The notes: generated by a model not told the origin, from the sequence alone. A stretch of DNA of 64,000 bases from Verrucomicrobiota bacterium (GCA_019136515.1 JAGVUB010000164.1:14394-78393), one strand, 5' to 3'. Counted from the first letter of the stretch, positions 2,561-10,794 are shown. Numbers and translations are program-made.

Positions 2561-3601
2561 CTAATCCTGCAGCCCTTCGGCGGCAGGCGGGGGCGACGGG
2601 ATCCGGGGCTCCGGCGGCGCGGAGGGCTCCGGCTCTTCCGCGACCGGCTCGACCGGCTGCTGGGCGCTCATGAACGCGATCAGGCGCTCGTTGAACTCCT
2701 TGGCCGGATCGCGCCCCATCTTCTTGAGCGCCTGCACGAGCGCGGCCACCTCGACGAGGCGGGCGATGTCGCGCCCGGGCCGGACGTGGATCTCGATGTG
2801 GGGAACGTGGATACCGAGGATCTTGTAGAAGCTCTCCTCGAGGCCGGTGCGCTCCTCCTCCACGTCGGGGCGCCAGTCCTGGAGGGTGATGACCATCTCG
2901 AGGCGCACCTCGGGGCGGATGCTGCGCACGCCGAACATCTCCGCGACGTTGATGATGCCGATGCCGCGGCACTCCATGTAGCCGCGATTCAGGGGCAGGC
3001 TGGAGGCGATCAGCTCGCGCTCATCGAGGACGCGGATGTGGGTGAGGTCGTCGGCGACGAGGCTGTGGCCGCGTTCGATGATCGCCAGGGCGGCCTCGCT
3101 CTTGCCGACGCCGCTGTGCCCGCGGATCATCACGCCGACGCCCTCGATGCTGAGCGTCGTGCCGTGCTCGGTGGTCTGGCGGGCGAACTCGGCGTCGATG
3201 CACATCGTCGAGATGTTGACGAAGTGCATCGTGATGAGCGGGGTGCGGTAGAGCGGCAGCTTCCGTTCGCGGGCGACGGTGAGCATGCTCTTGGGCGGGA
3301 GCAGATTGCGGGTGAGCACGACGCAGGGGATGCCGCGGTCGGCCATCGCATGCATCATCTCCTCCTGCCGGTGGGGCGGCAGGGTCTTGAAGTACGTCAT
3401 CTCGGTCGAGCCCACGACTTGGATGCGTTTGTTCGCGAAATACTTGTAGAACCCGGTGAGCGCGAGGGCCGGCCGGTTGATGCTGGGTTCGCGGATCTGG
3501 CGATGGACGCCCTCGCTGCCGGCGATCAACTCGGTCTTCAGCTTGGTCCCGTATTTCGCAAAGAAATCGGCGACGGAAACGGCGGTGACGGCTTTCGGCA
3601 T
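2561..3601 (-). CDS. hprK: HPr kinase/phosphorylase
   Basis: Walker A GHSGVGKSEAAL followed by ERGHSLVADD, with HprK-like overall length plus a Pro-rich C-terminal tail. Confidence 0.9.
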   Translation of the reverse strand: MPKAVTAVSVADFFAKYGTKLKTELIAGSEGVHRQIREPSINRPALALTGFYKYFANKRIQVVGSTEMTYFKTLPPHRQEEMMHAMADRGIPCVVLTRNLLPPKSMLTVARERKLPLYRTPLITMHFVNISTMCIDAEFARQTTEHGTTLSIEGVGVMIRGHSGVGKSEAALAIIERGHSLVADDLTHIRVLDERELIASSLPLNRGYMECRGIGIINVAEMFGVRSIRPEVRLEMVITLQDWRPDVEEERTGLEESFYKILGIHVPHIEIHVRPGRDIARLVEVAALVQALKKMGRDPAKEFNERLIAFMSAQQPVEPVAEEPEPSAPPEPRIPSPPPAAEGLQD

Positions 3602-3702: not shown

Positions 3703-6700
3703 TCAGGGTTGGCCGGAGGTCAGGCGCTCGCGGGCGGCGTGGATCTCCCCGGTGAGGAACGGGAGCAGCTTGCCGACGGAGTCCCAGTCCGCGCCTTCGG
3801 CGGCGGCTTCGAGCACACCGAACTGCTCGGCCAGGTTGTCCTCGCCGGCGAGCAGGAGCAGGGAGCGGAGGGCGTGGGCGGCGCGGCCGGTGCGGGGATC
3901 GCGCAGGCGGGCCTGCGCCTCGGCCTGCTGCCAGCCGGTGCCCAGGTCGGCGGCCAACTGGGCGAGGGTGGGCGCCAGCTCGCCCAGCATGGCCAGGGCC
4001 GGGGGCAGGCCCCGGGCGGGGGCGAGGTCGAGCGAGGGGCGCGGCCGCGGCCCGGTATCGAGCTCGTGGATCACCTGCGCGAGTTTCTCGCGCGTGACCG
4101 GCTTGGTGACGAACCCGGCCATGCCGGCGGCGCGGGCGGCGGCGAGTTTCTCGGCCGAGGAGTAGGCGGTGACGGCGACGATGGGCGGGCGCGGCGGCGG
4201 GAGCACCGCGAGCAGTTGGCGGCACAGTTCGTCGCCGTTGATGTCCGGCAGCCTCCAGTCGGTGAGGACGAGGTCGTAGGGCTGGCGGCGGGCGAGCTGG
4301 AGCGCGGAGGCGCCATCGGTCGCCCAGTCGACCTCGTAGCCGAGCGAGCGCAGGGCGTGGCCGAGGGCGAGCCGGTTGTAGTCCTCGTCCTCGATGGCGA
4401 GCGCGCGCGAGACGACGGCGACCGGCCCCGTGTCGCTGGCCGGCGCGGCGCTGGCCGGCAGCGCCAACTCGAGGGCGAACTCGGTGGTGCCGTCGCGGCT
4501 GGCGGCCGTCATGCGGCCGCCCATGCGCTCGGCGAGCCGGCGGCAGACGGCCAGGCCGAGGCCGAAGCCGGGGGTGCCCTCGGTGCCGGCGCCGCGGCGG
4601 AACGACTCGAAGAGGCGGGGCAGGTCGGCGGCGGGGATGGTCGGGCCGGCGTTGTGGACGGCGAGGCGCAGCCGGAACCTGCCCCCGGGCTCGGGGGTGA
4701 GCCGGAGCTCGATCCCGGCCTCGCGCGGCCGGCCGTACTTGAGCGCGTTGGAGACGAGGTTGCAGACGATCTGCCGGATCTTGCCGGTGTCGCCCTCGAG
4801 CCATTGCGGGGTCTCGGGCAGTTGCAGGGCGCAGGATTCCAGCAGCGGGTCCATCACGCGCACGGCCTCCTCGACCAGCGCGCAGGCCTCGAACGGGGCG
4901 GGGTGGAGCGCCGTCGCGCCGCGGTCGATGAGGGAGAAGTCCAATACATCGTCGAGCATGGAGCGCAGCTGCTCGGCGCAACCGGAGAGGACCTGCACGA
5001 AGTTGCGCTCGCGCGGGCCGAGTTCGGAGTCCTGGAGGATGGCGCAGATGCCGACGACGCCGTTGAGCGGGTTGCGGATCTCGTGGCTGACGCTGGCGAG
5101 GAACTCCTCCTTGGCGGCGTTGGCCTTGCGGAGCTGCGCGGTGCGTTGTTCGACCGCGGCCTCGAGGGCGCGTTTCTGCCGGAGCAGATGCCGGGTGCGC
5201 AGGCGGGTGAACCACCACACGGCGGCGGCGAGCAACAGGAACTCGAGGACGAGGGCCCAGGGCCGCAGCGGCAGCGGGTAGGGGCGATCCACGGCGAGCT
5301 CGCGCCGGGTCGCGAGTCCGTGGCGCTCGGCGACGAGTGCGAGGTGGTTGCGTCCCCAGTTGACGGGGATGGTCAGGGGCACGCCCGGGTGGGCCTCGGT
5401 CCAGGCGCCGTTCGGGAGGCGCACCCGATAGCCGGTCGGCGTCGAGGCCGGGGCCTCCCAGCGGCCGGGCACGAGCACCACCTGACCGTTGTTGTGCAGG
5501 GGAAGGGCGTGGCGGAGGCCCCGGTCGGCCCCGTTCCAGTGCCAGGTGGGGGCGGGGGGTGTCGCGAACCTCAGCGGCATCCTGATCTCGAGTACGCCGT
5601 GCCGTCCGCCGATGTAGAGGTGCCCGGAGTCGGCGGAGAGGGCTTCGGCGTCGACTGTGGCGAGGCCGGGGACATCGAGAGCGTTCCATACCCCGTCGGC
5701 GAGGCAGCCGAGCACGGGCGGGCCATCGGGGCGGGTGGCGAGCACCGCGAGTTGGGAGGTGAGGCGGGTGCCGTCGGGACGCTCGACTTCGATGAGCGCG
5801 GCGTCGCGCGGATTGCCGAAGGGGACACGGCCCACCGGGCCGGTGGCGGAGTCGCGGACTTCGCCATCCCAGAACAGCAGGCAGAGGCGGTCGGATGCGA
5901 GCTGGCGGGCCTTGGCGCGGCCGGTGCCGACTTGGGCGACGCGGCGGCCCGTGGTGTCGAAAGTTTGGATTCCGTCGGCATGGGTGCCGACGAAAAAGGC
6001 GTGGGAGTCGTTGGCCAGGGAGGTGATCCCGCTCGGGAGTTCGGTGACGACCGGGGCGGGCCCGGCGGAGACGAGGACGGTGTGGCCGTAGGCGACGGCG
6101 ATGCTGTCGCCGCAGGTGGCGAGGCCGTTGAGATAGCGGGTCGGCAACTGGACGGAACGACCGTGGAGCTCAACGGTGTTGTTGGCCACGCGCAGGCCCG
6201 CCACCGCGGGCCAGAGACTGTTGGCGGCGCTGGGGGCGATGTCGCCGCATGCGACCATGCCGCGCAAGGTGACGACGCGGGCACCGCCGCGTTCGGCCTG
6301 GAGGTGGAGAATGTCGGCTTCCTCGAAGCGGGCGATGCGGACTTGATCGGGGTCGGCGAGGGCGAAGGCGCCCTGCGTGCTGCCCACCAGCAACGAGTCT
6401 TCATCGCGGGTAAGGGCATAACAGGAGCCCAAGCCGCTCCATTGCCATTCGGGGGTCGCGGCTCCGGCGCGGTAGGCGAGGAGGCCCCGCCAGTAGGTCG
6501 CACAAAGCACGACGTCGCGTTCGTGGGCGACGCCGGTCAGCCCGGCTTCATCGAGGAGCGCCGCTGAGACCGAGGACGGGAGGAGCGTCCGTCCGTCTGG
6601 TGCGATGACGCCTTCCCCGGTGAACCAAAGGTCGTCCCGCAACTGGCGGACCGGAATGCGATTGCCCAGTGCCGGCCCGGCGGACTCGACCAAGGTGCCG

Positions 6701-7242
6701 TCCGCCCAGCGGCCGGGGGCTTGGTCGGCCCAGAGCGCGAGGGTTTCCCCCCGCCAGCGGCCGAGGGTGGGATGGCCGCCGGTGGCGGAGGACTCGATCA
6801 AGCGGGCGCTCGCCTGCGGGGTGACCAACCATAGGCCGGTCGGGCCGGCGACGAGCCAGCCTTCCGGCACCGCGAGCGCCTCGGTGATCGGTGCATGCAG
6901 GCCGACGATGGACTCGAAACTGCCGCGTTCGACGAATCCCGCGCAGCCTCCGCCCGCCGCGAAGATGCGGCCATGTGCGGCGACGATTGCCTGCACCGGG
7001 CTGCCGTGGGGCGTGGCGACGATCCGCCAATCCCCCTGGGGCACGCCGAGCGCGACGCCACCTTCGAAGCCTGCACCCAGACGACCGTCGGGAAGCCGGA
7101 CCAGCGCCCAGACGGCCTTGCCCCGCATGCTCTCGGGGAGCGCGAGAGGCTCCGCCAGAGGCGTGAACGGGACGGACGCAACGCTCCGGGCACCCAGAAA
7201 AACCAGCCACAAAACCACCCGAATCCATGTGGGGCAGTGCAT
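3703..7242 (-). CDS. Hybrid sensor histidine kinase/response regulator with a large periplasmic propeller-like domain and an HPt-like tail
   Basis: Contains the HisKA H-box (FLASVSHEIRNPLNG), the HATPase G-box (GFGLGLAVCRRLAERMGG), and a REC domain (YDLVLTDWRLPDINGDE). The start was set at the internal ATG 7242 (MHCPTWIRVVLWLVFLG, signal-like) rather than the ORF maximum at 7359. Confidence 0.85.
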   Translation of the reverse strand: MHCPTWIRVVLWLVFLGARSVASVPFTPLAEPLALPESMRGKAVWALVRLPDGRLGAGFEGGVALGVPQGDWRIVATPHGSPVQAIVAAHGRIFAAGGGCAGFVERGSFESIVGLHAPITEALAVPEGWLVAGPTGLWLVTPQASARLIESSATGGHPTLGRWRGETLALWADQAPGRWADGTLVESAGPALGNRIPVRQLRDDLWFTGEGVIAPDGRTLLPSSVSAALLDEAGLTGVAHERDVVLCATYWRGLLAYRAGAATPEWQWSGLGSCYALTRDEDSLLVGSTQGAFALADPDQVRIARFEEADILHLQAERGGARVVTLRGMVACGDIAPSAANSLWPAVAGLRVANNTVELHGRSVQLPTRYLNGLATCGDSIAVAYGHTVLVSAGPAPVVTELPSGITSLANDSHAFFVGTHADGIQTFDTTGRRVAQVGTGRAKARQLASDRLCLLFWDGEVRDSATGPVGRVPFGNPRDAALIEVERPDGTRLTSQLAVLATRPDGPPVLGCLADGVWNALDVPGLATVDAEALSADSGHLYIGGRHGVLEIRMPLRFATPPAPTWHWNGADRGLRHALPLHNNGQVVLVPGRWEAPASTPTGYRVRLPNGAWTEAHPGVPLTIPVNWGRNHLALVAERHGLATRRELAVDRPYPLPLRPWALVLEFLLLAAAVWWFTRLRTRHLLRQKRALEAAVEQRTAQLRKANAAKEEFLASVSHEIRNPLNGVVGICAILQDSELGPRERNFVQVLSGCAEQLRSMLDDVLDFSLIDRGATALHPAPFEACALVEEAVRVMDPLLESCALQLPETPQWLEGDTGKIRQIVCNLVSNALKYGRPREAGIELRLTPEPGGRFRLRLAVHNAGPTIPAADLPRLFESFRRGAGTEGTPGFGLGLAVCRRLAERMGGRMTAASRDGTTEFALELALPASAAPASDTGPVAVVSRALAIEDEDYNRLALGHALRSLGYEVDWATDGASALQLARRQPYDLVLTDWRLPDINGDELCRQLLAVLPPPRPPIVAVTAYSSAEKLAAARAAGMAGFVTKPVTREKLAQVIHELDTGPRPRPSLDLAPARGLPPALAMLGELAPTLAQLAADLGTGWQQAEAQARLRDPRTGRAAHALRSLLLLAGEDNLAEQFGVLEAAAEGADWDSVGKLLPFLTGEIHAARERLTSGQP

Positions 7243-7304
7243 GGTGAAAGGGGCGGAATGATCGGTCGGCAGGGCGCCGGCGGCAACCGATTTCTCGTCG
7301 TGCC

Positions 7305-7583
7305 ATGACAAAGACCACACTGTTCGTGCTGCTCGGCGGTCTCGGCGTCGTCGCCACACCTTGGCTCTCGGATACGCTGGCGGTACCTGCCCCCGCTGAG
7401 CCGATCGCCTGGGAACAGCCTCCGGGTGTCCCGCCTTGTCCAGGAGGGGGCATCATCATCAAGGTCGGGGACGAGGTGACGCGGGGGGCGCTCGCCTGGG
7501 AGCAGCCCCCGGGGGTGCCCCCGCGCCCGGGCGGCGGCATCATCATCAAGGCTGCGGCGCCGGCCGGCGACCCGGTGGCATGA
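7305..7583 (+). CDS. Small secreted Pro/Gly-rich protein with two copies of AWEQPPGVPPxPGGGIIIK
   Basis: 92 aa with a hydrophobic N-terminus (TLFVLLGGLGVVATPW). The two 19-aa repeats differ at the DNA level mostly by synonymous third-position changes, which argues for translation. Confidence 0.6.
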   Translation: MTKTTLFVLLGGLGVVATPWLSDTLAVPAPAEPIAWEQPPGVPPCPGGGIIIKVGDEVTRGALAWEQPPGVPPRPGGGIIIKAAAPAGDPVA

Positions 7584-7601
7584 GTCCCGGGCCCTTCGTC
7601 C

Positions 7602-8483
7602 ATGGTCTCGCTCGCGGCATTGCGTTTCGGCGGCATCTTTACCGGTCGGGGCGGCCCGATCGCCCGGACCGACCTCGCCGAGTTTCCGGTGCAGCATCGG
7701 CCCCATTGGTTGGCCAACGCCTTCCTCCGGGAGGAACTGGTCCCCGGCAGCGCCGGAGCGTCGCTCTATGGCCCGGCCGACGGCACCGCCATTGCCCGCT
7801 CGGCGATCACAGCGAGTCGCACCGCCATCGCGGAGGCGTTGGCCCGTTGGGCGTATCTGGCCGTCTACGACAGTCCGGTGGCGGGACGTTTCGGGTTCCT
7901 CGACGACGGCAGCTCGAACGGGATGGCGGCCTTCCCCGGCCTTTTCCGGCACCAGGCCCAAGCACTGGCCCGCGCCGAGGCGATCAAGCACCACACACTG
8001 GTCTCCTGGTGGGATGGCCGGCTGCCGGCCGAGCCGGTCGCCTCGCCGTATGCCGGGGTCGAGGCTCTCCGACTCCACCACGACGCCGGCCCCGGCGAGG
8101 TGGTGGTGCTCTTCCGCCGGACTCGTGCCGGTTATGCGTACGGTCACGCCTATGGCCCGCGGCTCGGGGCGGCGCTGGACCAGGCGGCGATCGCACTGGC
8201 GCGGGCTGAACACGTGCTCGCCGCCTACCGCGCGAAGGGTGGGCTGGCGGCGCCGGCGAACTTCCTCGAACGGCGGATGCTGCATTTCGCGGGCGAGGAG
8301 GGGGCGGAGCGGTTTTGCCGGCGCTTGTTGGCCAAACCCTCCAGACCGGCGCTGCCGTTTCGCACGCTCTTCGACGGCGAGATCCCCGGCCCGTGGGCCC
8401 GGTGGGCGACGGTGTGGCGTTGCTGCGCCCGCATGCCGACCGACGAGTATCTCGAGCCCGGCGCGGACTTCTTTTTCTGGTGA
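7602..8483 (+). CDS. Hypothetical protein, possibly a divergent YcaO-like fold
   Basis: 293 aa, starting 18 nt after the repeat-peptide gene. The segments AIAEALARWAY and SSNGMAAFPG...ARAEAIKHH resemble the two YcaO motifs (xxEAxER, SNGxAxG...ExxERD), but the second acidic residue is missing in both. Confidence 0.45.
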   Translation: MVSLAALRFGGIFTGRGGPIARTDLAEFPVQHRPHWLANAFLREELVPGSAGASLYGPADGTAIARSAITASRTAIAEALARWAYLAVYDSPVAGRFGFLDDGSSNGMAAFPGLFRHQAQALARAEAIKHHTLVSWWDGRLPAEPVASPYAGVEALRLHHDAGPGEVVVLFRRTRAGYAYGHAYGPRLGAALDQAAIALARAEHVLAAYRAKGGLAAPANFLERRMLHFAGEEGAERFCRRLLAKPSRPALPFRTLFDGEIPGPWARWATVWRCCARMPTDEYLEPGADFFFW

Positions 8484-8720
8484 CAACTTGGGGGACGCGC
8501 TGATCGCTCCGGGGTGCTCGATCTGTGGGGCGAGCTCCCGCTTCGGCGCGGCGCGTCCCCCTCCCTGTCCGGGGTGGGCGCAGGGGGCGTGGCACGACAC
8601 TGTGGGCGGCGCGGTGGCGGGCGCAGGCGGCGAATGACCGCGGGAGGACCGCGCCGGACCGTTTGTCGCGACTTCCGACCGTCCAATGGGCGGGGGCTGC
8701 AATGTGCGGCCGGCTTGGGT

Positions 8721-8903
8721 ATGCCGGTCGCGATGGAAATCCCTCCGCCCGTTTCTGGCTGGATCGTCCTGGCAGGGGCGCTCGGCGCCGCCGCCGGGGT
8801 GGCCGGGGGCGTTCTTGTCGCCGTGGTCTGGATTGTCGCCCGGGCGCTTCGCGCGGAGATGTGCGCCGCCGCCGCAGCGGCGGGACTGCGCCGCGACGAC
8901 TGA
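8721..8903 (+). CDS. Possible small single-pass membrane protein
   Basis: 60-aa ORF with a strong TM helix (GWIVLAGALGAAAGVAGGVLVAVVWIV). It ends 5 nt before the kinase ATG. It is part of a longer ORF from 8514 whose upstream part looks non-coding. Confidence 0.3.
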   Translation: MPVAMEIPPPVSGWIVLAGALGAAAGVAGGVLVAVVWIVARALRAEMCAAAAAAGLRRDD

Positions 8904-8908
8904 CGCGC

Positions 8909-10045
8909 ATGCCGTCGACTGTGCACATCCTTCCGGCGTCGGCGGAGCGATACCCGTGGTGGCGCCGCTGGCTGGGCACGCGTAGCTACTGGCTGGGGCA
9001 GGTCTCGTTCTGGGGCCTGCTCGCGGCCTTCCTGCTCTCCAGCAGTCTTGCCGATGCCAACCGCAAGGAGTCCGACGCGGAGGTCTGGGCGAGCAATCTG
9101 GCGGTTGTGCTGACCGGGGGCGGCTTCACCCATCTGCTGCGGGTGCTGATCCTTGCGGTGCGGGCGCGAGCGAAGTCGTGGTGGCCGGTCGTCGGCGCGC
9201 TGTTCCCGGTGAATGTCGCGGCGGCGGCGGGCATGGTGGCCACGTTGCTCGTGCTGGCCCTGGTCTTCGGTCCGGAGTCGCTCGGCGAGGATGGCGAGGT
9301 GATGACCGGCGCGGATCTTCTCGGCGGGGTCGGCTTTTTCTTCGCGCTGATCTCCGTTTGGAACGTATCCTATTTCGGGTGCTGCTATTACCGGGGCTAC
9401 CGGGAGGGGCTGTTCGAGCGGCTGCGGCTGCAGGCGGCGGTGAAGGAGGCGGAGTTGCGCACCCTCAAGGCCCAGGTCAACCCGCACTTCCTCTTCAACA
9501 GCCTCAACACCCTGCGCTCGATGATCCCGGGCGACCTCGAGCGTCCCCGGGAGGCGGTGACGCTGCTGGCCGAACTGCTGCGCGCCTCGCTCACGCTGGG
9601 CGATCGCACGACCGTGAGCGTGGCCGAGGAGCTGGAGACCGTGGAGAGCTACCTGGCGCTGGAGCAGCTGCGTTTCGAGAAGCGCCTGCGGGTGCGGGCC
9701 CGCGTCGACGCCGCCGCCCGCGAGGTGCAACTGCCGCCGTTCGTCCTGCAGACGCTGGTCGAGAACGCGGTGAAATTCGGCGTGGGCGGGCGACGCGAGG
9801 GCGGCGAGGTGGCCTACGCGGTGGCGCGGCGCGACGGCGTGCTGTCGTTGCGGGTGGAGAATAGGGGACAGCTTCGCACTACGAGCGAGTCGACCGGGCT
9901 GGGGCTGGCCAACGTCCGTGCGCGGCTCCTGCATCTCTACGGACCGGCCGCCGCGGTGACGCTGACGCAGGCCGACGCCGACCTGGTCGTCGCCGAGGCG
10001 ACGATCCCCGTCAACCCGACCAGGCCGGCGGGGGGCCCCTCATGA
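8909..10045 (+). CDS. LytS/YehU-type sensor histidine kinase
   Basis: Several N-terminal TM helices, then the His_kinase (PF06580-type) box NPHFLFNSLNTLRSMI and an HATPase region (LVENAVKFG, GLGLANVRARL). It overlaps the downstream regulator by 4 nt. Confidence 0.85.
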   Translation: MPSTVHILPASAERYPWWRRWLGTRSYWLGQVSFWGLLAAFLLSSSLADANRKESDAEVWASNLAVVLTGGGFTHLLRVLILAVRARAKSWWPVVGALFPVNVAAAAGMVATLLVLALVFGPESLGEDGEVMTGADLLGGVGFFFALISVWNVSYFGCCYYRGYREGLFERLRLQAAVKEAELRTLKAQVNPHFLFNSLNTLRSMIPGDLERPREAVTLLAELLRASLTLGDRTTVSVAEELETVESYLALEQLRFEKRLRVRARVDAAAREVQLPPFVLQTLVENAVKFGVGGRREGGEVAYAVARRDGVLSLRVENRGQLRTTSESTGLGLANVRARLLHLYGPAAAVTLTQADADLVVAEATIPVNPTRPAGGPS

Positions 10046-10794
10046 ATGCCATCATTGTCGACGACGAGCACCCGGCGCGCATCGAACTGGCCCGCCTGCT
10101 GGGCGGCTGCCCTTCGGTCCGGCTGGTCGGCGAAGCCGAGAGCGCGCCGGAGGCGTGCGAGTTGATCGAGCGGCTGCGGCCCGACCTCGTCTTTCTCGAC
10201 ATCGAGATGCCTGAGCAGAACGGCTTCGATCTGTTGGAGTCGCTGCCCCCGCCGCATCCGCACGTGATCTTCACCACGGCGTACAACGCCTATGCGTTGC
10301 GAGCCTTCGAGGTGAATGCGCTCGACTACCTGCTCAAGCCGATCAACCCGCGGCGACTGGCGGCCGCGCTTGAGCGGTTGGCGCAGCGGTGTGCCGCCGC
10401 GCCAGCCGGTCCCCTGGGGCCGGCGGTAGGAGCCGGGCCGGACGCTTCGGCCGTGCCGCTGCAGCCCGACGAGCATGTGTTCGTGCGCGACGGCGAGCGT
10501 TGCTGGTTCGTGGCGGTGCGGTCGTTGCGCCTGCTCGAGTCCGCCGGCAACCACACCCGGCTGTACTTCGACAAAGCAACGCCCCTGCTCTACCGCACGC
10601 TCAACTCGATGGAGGAGCGGCTGCCGCCCACGCTCTTCATGCGCGCCAACCGCTCCCAGCTCATCAATCTCACGATGATCGAGAAGATCGGCCAGTGGTT
10701 CAGCGGCTCGCTGAAGGTGACGTTGAAGGACGGCACCGAGGTCGAGTTCTCCCGCCGGCAGGCCCAGCTTTTCCGCGAGCGGATGAGCCTGTAG
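10042..10794 (+). CDS. LytR/AlgR-family response regulator (REC + LytTR)
   Basis: REC motifs (IVDDE, PDLVFLDIEMPEQNG) plus a LytTR-like C-terminus (FMRANRSQLINL...). Confidence 0.9.
   Translation: MNAIIVDDEHPARIELARLLGGCPSVRLVGEAESAPEACELIERLRPDLVFLDIEMPEQNGFDLLESLPPPHPHVIFTTAYNAYALRAFEVNALDYLLKPINPRRLAAALERLAQRCAAAPAGPLGPAVGAGPDASAVPLQPDEHVFVRDGERCWFVAVRSLRLLESAGNHTRLYFDKATPLLYRTLNSMEERLPPTLFMRANRSQLINLTMIEKIGQWFSGSLKVTLKDGTEVEFSRRQAQLFRERMSL

Follow-up and report, generated by a model that had tools for sequence, protein, structure and literature searches.

We analysed a stretch of 64,000 nucleotides (nt) from a Verrucomicrobiota bacterium (GCA_019136515.1, JAGVUB010000164.1:14394-78393; hereafter the window) and describe a locus in which a small repeat-bearing peptide gene is followed by the gene for a 293-amino-acid protein. 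This protein belongs to the YcaO fold and superfamily. Comparison with related genomes indicates that the locus is the window's own derived form of a cassette of four genes that is confined to Opitutales (Verrucomicrobiota) and made up of a NarL/GerE-type regulator, a hybrid HisKA-HATPase-REC-HPt kinase, a divergent small peptide gene and the 293-residue minimal YcaO (mini-YcaO). Judging from the residues of its nucleotide site, the window's YcaO is most likely a pseudoenzyme that no longer catalyses a reaction and may, for example, bind the peptide as a partner, and this state is the most unusual feature of the locus. By analogy with Bacillus ComQXPA, we favour a peptide-signalling cassette that carries a pseudo-YcaO in the window's lineage, a reading that we hold with about as much doubt as confidence; all four rival explanations considered below rank behind it.

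The mini-YcaO gene lies on the plus strand at 7602-8483, 18 nt from the peptide gene, and was assigned from an AlphaFold model, a Foldseek search and orthologue profiles. In a search of the Protein Data Bank (PDB) with the model (predicted local distance difference test (pLDDT) 92.8; predicted template modelling (pTM) score 0.90), all 11 matches at E ≤ 1e-3 were YcaO enzymes (McbD, Methanopyrus kandleri YcaO and Escherichia coli YcaO), with query-normalised template modelling (TM) scores of 0.49-0.59. The window's protein itself gave no match to the YcaO profile PF02624 even at E ≤ 10, and none in NCBIfam. Among its relatives, 31 of 34 aligned members matched PF02624, the best at 2.1e-10. When ten orthologues (40-70% identical, with the same length and the same synteny) were scored singly, five exceeded the gathering score of 25.7 bits (P0113, 40.9; P0111, 32.4; P0102, 31.3; P0048, 27.6; P0010, 27.2). 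The closest NCBIfam model to the family, the SagD-type thiazole/oxazole maturase TIGR03604, remained far below its cut-off. A family profile searched against PDB sequences found no YcaO, which was recovered by the fold search alone. In hhalign, the family aligned to the single E. coli YcaO sequence with low probability (3%) and with the central motifs placed as expected, a result that we used only alongside the motif, Pfam and fold evidence. The YcaO-like character that a preliminary description of this DNA had seen in two segments of the open reading frame (ORF) is thus borne out by the fold search and the orthologue matches.

Homology searching retrieved 136 full-length relatives of about 293 residues, many with precomputed PF02624 matches and labelled Opitutaceae or Verrucomicrobia, and an exhaustive search gave 387 clusters at 50% identity, nearly all of 280-340 residues. 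On three long helices, the family consensus reads ADGTG...AISEALERWA, SSNGMAAFPG...ARxEALER and YGHA.G...AAxELAR. Of these, DGTG...SEALERW aligns with GKG...GEYFER of E. coli YcaO (E75, E78, R79), SNGMAA...EALER with SNGMSAG...SEVFER (E199, E202, R203), and the third helix with ALERTVTEL (E290). The substrate-side S/T-N-G-M motif is present, as S105-N106-G107-M108 of the window protein aligns with E. coli S180-N-G-M. The modelled N-terminus is a beta-hairpin, not a winged helix; there is no recognition domain, and the protein lacks a signal peptide. No E1-like or Ocin-ThiF-like partner was found near any inspected locus, a search that covered neighbourhoods and not whole genomes. TfuA (PF07812) was detected in a positive control genome and in none of 25 carrier genomes. 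As no canonical YcaO was found in the window's own genome, there is no paralogue able to supply the activity.

The nucleotide site of the window's protein is degenerate. The window's clade comprises the relatives with a YcaO protein at least about 63% identical to it. Outside this clade, positions 78, 81, 82, 126, 129, 130, 198 and 201 read EEREERER in 64 of 68 loci. The window has EAREKHAR (E78, A81, R82, E126, K129, H130, A198, R201), these eight positions are altered in 11/11 clade members, and 28 close relatives show 22 different site patterns. The window's protein has A81 in place of the equivalent of E. coli YcaO E78, K129 and H130 in place of E202 and R203, and A198 in place of E290. 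Three acidic positions of the Mg2+/ATP site and one arginine are therefore substituted, and the acidic and arginine set of the three ATP/Mg2+ helices (E75/E78/R79, E199/E202/R203 and E290 in E. coli) is incomplete.

We know of no earlier description of a natural YcaO that is catalytically dead and yet kept by selection. Across 228 sequences from outside the clade, 42 positions were at least 90% conserved, and 33 of these remain at least 93% conserved inside it. Relaxed within the clade are E198 (25%), E81 (43%), E126 (46%), E129 (50%) and R130 (57%), and also S77 (61%), E78 (68%), R201 (79%) and G63 (82%). The relaxation is confined to exactly those residues that belong to the ATP/Mg2+ helices. 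The reading frame is intact in every clade member and pairwise ratios of nonsynonymous to synonymous substitution rates (dN/dS) are 0.13-0.37, values that indicate purifying selection on the mini-YcaO gene in this clade. An E202A variant of E. coli YcaO serves as an inactive control (PMC13063428), and E167A in McbD, a Glu-to-Ala change at a Mg2+-binding position, nearly abolishes activity (PMC6395948); the window's protein is therefore most likely non-catalytic, or at least no ATP-dependent amide activator. An active backbone-modifying YcaO, as first proposed for this locus, is accordingly doubtful in the window's genome, where the E202 equivalent is among the substituted residues. Because only the nucleotide-site residues have been released while the protein, the peptide and the kinase are kept, a non-enzymatic function of the YcaO scaffold is indicated, and the protein appears to be kept for a role other than catalysis. 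The clade would then in effect be a natural loss-of-catalysis experiment. One locus, L135 (6001-6879), has changes in the third helix only (E198R, R201Q) together with a peptide carrying a four-fold TPILGVPGEPDR repeat and no Cys, and may be a second, independent enzyme-site change accompanying a repeat peptide.

The preliminary description had set out five co-directional genes at 7305-10794, and ORF positions and Pfam domains agree with that layout. The conserved unit differs from this series of five. A homologue of the hybrid kinase stands divergent from the YcaO gene in 24/24 loci from metagenomes and species genomes, and a divergent, adjacent hybrid kinase was found in 58/58 further loci from species representatives with enough upstream sequence. 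This gene had been mentioned in passing for its position 62 nt away, which is correct, yet it is an invariant partner. A regulator with REC and GerE domains is convergent with the kinase in 45/45 loci outside the window's clade, so that all four roles are linked there. Within the clade, it is beside the kinase in 0/8 loci, with hprK there instead, and in the window it is unlinked. The orthologue in the window's genome is on another contig (G000:C166:19472-20110, L140/L145), where it is 58% identical (next best, 35%) and neighboured only by LptA/LptB-like and glyoxalase genes, which are uninformative. These positions show that the regulator has left the cassette in the window's clade and moved elsewhere in the genome. 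Throughout the clade, hprK lies directly downstream of the kinase gene (2561-3601 in the window).

Synteny of the peptide gene and the ORF, named beforehand as a test of the proposed locus, holds throughout a bacterial order: most loci have 8-30 nt between the two genes, and no locus has them separated. In a sample of 201 genomes of the order, 26 carry mini-YcaO; a sample of 401 from the phylum gave 31, all of them in the same order, and the best 80 species-level matches are all named Opitutaceae, Opitutales, Opitutia or Verrucomicrobiota. The gene is usually single-copy; G135, G170 and G280 have two copies, the second more divergent (E about 1e-59).

The peptide gene of the window (7305-7583, plus strand) encodes an exported or precursor-like peptide of 92 amino acids. 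Its N-terminus, MTKT followed by a hydrophobic stretch, resembles a Sec-type signal and precedes two tandem units, whose existence was confirmed: AWEQPPGVPPCPGGGIIIK at 7407-7463 and AWEQPPGVPPRPGGGIIIK at 7494-7550, both on the plus strand. The units differ at 11 of 57 nt, and ten of the 11 differences are synonymous and at third codon positions. As the differences are almost only synonymous, the peptide sequence of each unit is under selection and the duplication is not recent. Cys occurs in unit 1 only, and the peptide of the sister species has none. The 92-residue repeat peptide is the only copy in its genome and has no match in Pfam or NCBIfam; no curated family in either collection covers the window's 293-residue protein or the peptides. 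The start of the gene, ATGACAAAGACC, is kept across the clade. The concern that the peptide might be a mere low-complexity surface protein was not supported, as it looks like a precursor or signal peptide.

Between the peptide and kinase genes lies a divergent region of 62 nt (7243-7304), probably a control region. The spacer is exactly 62 nt in 10/10 clade members, and its conserved blocks, GGAA(A/C)GATC and GGCAA.CGATTTCTCG, contain inverted half-sites that read ATCGGT and ACCGAT in the window. A promoter and terminator consensus scan of 7100-9000 found nothing, and an Rfam scan of 7000-9200 gave no match.

Across the family, nearly every locus has a small ORF immediately upstream of the YcaO gene, usually 8-30 nt away. 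The common type starts with MKK and about 18 hydrophobic residues ending in G-x-x-x; the conserved motif AA(E/Q)K(F/L/M)DP comes next, near residue 23, and the tail after it is hypervariable. This layout would fit a Sec signal peptide with a small-residue cleavage site. Among the 61 loci in which the enzyme site is intact, 48 have a Cys in the tail, mostly as Pro-Cys placed 5-28 residues before the C-terminus. Such a build, constant towards the N-terminus and hypervariable towards the C-terminus in a small ORF beside the enzyme gene, is precursor-like. In the window's clade, conserved tandem units replace the variable part: MTKT and a hydrophobic stretch are followed by two or three units of the form (A/V)W(E/S/T)QPP...P(R/L/K)PG...(III/VRV/charged), with Cys present in some units and absent from others. 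Another type, AAESFDPVF.GG..., lacks Cys. Independent tandem repeats occur with SLGCAQLPCYHRDFNASRSGS three times, TPILGVPGEPDR four times and DGDDEPFPDRS twice, and multi-unit peptides arose several times. A lipoprotein reading of the peptides was rejected, as an LLSC-like box is present in only a few. In L044, L046, L049, L051 and L052, which are from genomes of family f12, the ORF upstream of mini-YcaO belongs to a second peptide type of 39-40 amino acids, with an amphipathic MKK...YN.G.R N-terminus that is not signal-like and a conserved tail TKA(W/Y)P(S/T)(F/Y)P(C/T)(G/E)(F/V), for example TKAWPSFPC.

A perfect 16-bp palindrome, TACCTTTNNAAAGGTA, was found solely in the kinase-peptide spacer, once in each of ten loci (L095, L098, L101, L104-L106, L110, L112, L114 and L115) and twice in an eleventh (L123), at about 5680-5740 in each. 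In a further subgroup, the corresponding position holds a palindrome of another sequence (CACCC...GGGGT). NarL-family regulators bind paired heptamers, which both spacer palindromes resemble. Both would suit a peptide operon controlled by the neighbouring GerE-type regulator, for which TACCTTTNNAAAGGTA is a candidate operator.

The hybrid, or unorthodox, sensor histidine kinase (3703-7242, minus strand; Pfam HisKA, HATPase_c and Response_reg) begins 62 nt from the peptide gene in divergent orientation. It consists of an N-terminal signal or transmembrane helix, a periplasmic all-beta sensor of about 630 residues, a transmembrane helix, HisKA, HATPase_c, REC and a probable HPt tail. A model of residues 1-690 (pLDDT 89.5) shows the short N-terminal helix, about 630 beta residues and the transmembrane helix. 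Among PDB structures, it most resembles the periplasmic domains of Bacteroides BT4663 and BT4673 (E 7e-19 to 1e-15, TM score up to 0.60), and kinase orthologues match Reg_prop and Y_Y_Y, with C-terminal tails that match Hpt. The periplasmic tandem beta-propeller with Y_Y_Y is thus shared with BT4663 and BT4673. Unlike these glycan sensors, which carry an AraC-type DNA-binding output, the window's kinase has REC-HPt at its C-terminal end and a GerE-type regulator as a separate partner; this make-up marks it as an unorthodox kinase that should pass phosphate on to a regulator encoded apart from it. Compared with orthologues from beyond the window's clade, the window's kinase shows 24-36% identity in the sensor domain, in so far as this aligns at all, and 41-68% in the kinase core.

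With the azoline-forming YcaOs (McbD of microcin B17, SagD and PatD/LynD), mini-YcaO shares the fold and, in the family consensus, the three-helix E..ER and SNGM motifs, and its gene likewise adjoins a small precursor-like gene with Cys in a variable tail. In contrast, it has only about 293 residues against 396 in McbD, its loci lack a nearby E1-like or recognition partner, dehydrogenase, protease or exporter, its precursor has a Sec-like signal, and the window copy is without three Mg2+/ATP-site glutamates. Like the stand-alone or protein-modifying YcaOs (E. coli YcaO acting on uL16, methanogen YcaO-TfuA, bottromycin and streptamidine), it has no fused partner, and M. kandleri and E. coli YcaO are among its best structural matches. 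It lacks the C-terminal dimerisation domain of E. coli YcaO, TfuA is absent from the 25 carriers, and those systems do not feature a linked kinase, regulator and peptide. Closer in organisation is Bacillus ComQXPA, a cassette with the same four roles: a modifying enzyme and a small hypervariable precursor are joined there by a histidine kinase of the membrane and by a regulator of the NarL/GerE family, to which ComA belongs. As in ComQXPA, the sensor diverges faster than the kinase core and a palindromic candidate operator lies upstream of the peptide gene. The likeness is a functional analogy, not membership, and staphylococcal agr is also comparable. The place of the isoprenyl transferase of ComQXPA is taken by YcaO, and that of its polytopic membrane sensor by tandem propellers in the periplasm; the host of the Opitutales cassette is diderm, its peptide has a Sec-like signal, and its signalling role is a prediction.

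Starting from the fold, homology, synteny, peptide architecture, residue loss and selection, which the data support directly, we infer modification chemistry, export, sensing and autoinduction as follows. In the ancestral form, the cytoplasmic YcaO would use ATP to modify the C-terminal variable part of the peptide, most likely by cyclodehydration at the conserved Pro-Cys. With its N-terminal signal, the peptide would leave the cytoplasm through Sec and be cut close to the conserved AA|EK(F/L)DP junction, and the periplasmic propellers of the kinase would sense the product. A phosphorelay would then activate the GerE-type regulator to bind the palindrome upstream of the peptide gene, giving an autoinducing circuit built like ComQXPA. 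The window's clade would have rewired this circuit, with two or three tandem AWEQPP...PRPG...III units, a relocated regulator and loss of the acidic site residues of YcaO; here the tandem-repeat peptide may be unmodified or differently handled, with the YcaO scaffold as a non-catalytic partner. The circuit is probably kept in the window's lineage, because the kinase, the peptide, the regulator orthologue and the control region are all conserved.

Modified-peptide signalling between cells is well known in Firmicutes, with few examples in diderm bacteria. In the literature searched, which left most subscription journals outside, there was no description of the mini-YcaO family or of a kinase-linked YcaO cassette in Opitutales, nor of modified-peptide signalling of such a kind in Verrucomicrobiota. 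More tentatively, and as a possibility that we rate clearly below the signalling reading itself, Opitutales may hold an unrecognised, self-contained diderm pheromone system of a YcaO-tailored Sec peptide, a propeller kinase and a NarL-type regulator, together with a pseudoenzyme YcaO in the window's lineage that is retained for a role other than catalysis alongside a novel tandem-repeat peptide. The cassette is compact, with four genes, no dedicated exporter, strict synteny across the order and a predicted operator, and is therefore directly testable in cultivated Opitutaceae or by heterologous expression. Mini-YcaO, at about 293 residues, is one of the smallest YcaO proteins; this size, the missing partner protein and an aromatic C-terminus make it a useful minimal model for substrate recognition by YcaO.

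Several observations weigh against the signalling cassette with a tailored peptide as we picture it. Among ribosomal modified peptides, it is to our knowledge unusual for a substrate modified in the cytoplasm to carry a Sec signal, which makes the proposed order, modification before export, tentative. Peptides without Cys occur in several subgroups whose enzyme site is intact (those with AAESFDPVF.GG peptides and those with TPILGVPGEPDR or DGDDEPFPDRS repeats), so azoline formation is not general. BT4663-type sensors are known as binders of glycans and not of peptides, and the ligand of the kinase could therefore be something else. As for the pseudoenzyme, E78, E126 and the SNGM motif remain in the window's YcaO, which may have residual or altered catalysis. 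Lastly, family members close with a conserved F-F-F-W as their very last residues and lack the proline tail of azoline-forming YcaOs, in which the tail is inserted into the active site, a role described for Pro396 of McbD (PMC6395948).

That the cassette makes an antimicrobial ribosomal peptide, such as a bacteriocin-like azoline or thioamide, with the kinase and regulator answering an outside cue and the peptide not being the ligand, seems to us improbable. Two-component control is common for antimicrobial peptide clusters, which would suit this role, as would the glycan binding of BT4663-type sensors. The Cys-bearing variable tails also suit azoline chemistry, and YcaO enzymes are best known from antimicrobial peptides, for example microcin B17 (PMC6395948). 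However, no immunity, dehydrogenase, protease or exporter gene is conserved beside the cassette, which is mostly single-copy and vertically distributed within one order; the kinase (58/58) and the regulator (45/45) are conserved as strictly as the enzyme, and the window's clade lost the enzyme site yet retains everything else. We give a similarly small chance to the small protein being an unmodified, periplasmic or membrane-tethered kinase accessory that tunes the sensor in cis, with YcaO acting on a different target, for instance a protein backbone, or as a cytoplasmic regulator. The signal- or signal-anchor-like N-terminus of the peptide, the lack of a signal peptide on YcaO and the retention of the peptide in a clade with a lost enzyme site are all in keeping with an accessory, and E. 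coli YcaO modifies a protein (uL16) rather than a small peptide (PMC13063428). Against this stand the unbroken pairing of the peptide and YcaO genes, mostly 8-30 nt apart, the leader with a variable tail and recurrent Pro-Cys, which are typical of precursors, and the repeated multi-unit versions, which resemble multi-core precursors.

It is less probable still that the peptide and YcaO genes of the window's genome are a decaying remnant without present function. Loss of catalytic-site residues and a cognate regulator that is no longer adjacent would be expected of a remnant, but the frames are intact in all clade members with dN/dS of 0.13-0.37, 33 of the 42 family-conserved sites still reach at least 93% conservation in the clade, nearly all differences between the repeat units are synonymous, the control region is constant in length and has conserved blocks, and the regulator orthologue is retained elsewhere in the genome. 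The remaining explanation concerns the two genes downstream, a LytS-type histidine kinase and a LytTR response regulator, which the preliminary description counted as part of the locus. LytTR regulators often control peptide loci, and if this pair served specifically to control the peptide and YcaO genes, in the manner of pheromone or bacteriocin loci under LytTR control, the co-directional, close arrangement in the window and its recurrence in the closest species would be explained. The pair is absent beside the cassette in every other locus examined, same-clade members included, and a gap of 425 nt separates the YcaO and LytS genes, which makes a dedicated role very improbable. The signalling cassette thus remains our preferred reading, with the LytS/LytTR pair outside it.

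The LytS-type kinase (378 amino acids; 8909-10045, plus strand; Pfam His_kinase PF06580, 1.2e-23) has its likely start at 8909, set by the called orthologue in L055. It overlaps by 4 nt the LytTR regulator (10042-10794, plus strand; Pfam Response_reg and LytTR), which is BtsR/LytR-like in NCBIfam below the cut-off. Both are lineage-specific neighbours, found by the cassette only in the window and in L055/L060, the closest species (YcaO protein 88% identical); the same position elsewhere in the clade is taken by a gene for RNase T, seryl-tRNA synthetase, a dehydrogenase or nitronate monooxygenase, and unrelated genes in place of the pair indicate that it is an unrelated neighbour outside the conserved unit. 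On the far flank of the cassette, a nitronate-monooxygenase-family gene is present in several relatives (from 10803 onwards, minus strand, in the window). With hprK on one side and this gene on the other, the LytS/LytTR pair looks inserted between the cassette and that gene.

A possible single-pass membrane ORF of 60 amino acids (8721-8903, plus strand) also lies outside the conserved cassette. As described earlier, it exists and has one strongly hydrophobic segment, but as a gene it is weak: counterparts occur only in two related loci, L055 and, more loosely, L058, and substitutions relative to L055, the sister species, lack third-position bias, so that its gene status is uncertain. The whole interval between the YcaO and LytS genes (8484-8908, 425 nt) is 91.5% identical to that of the sister species, with long perfect blocks, no codon-position bias in the frame of the 60-residue ORF and no Rfam match, and may hold a regulatory element or a small gene.

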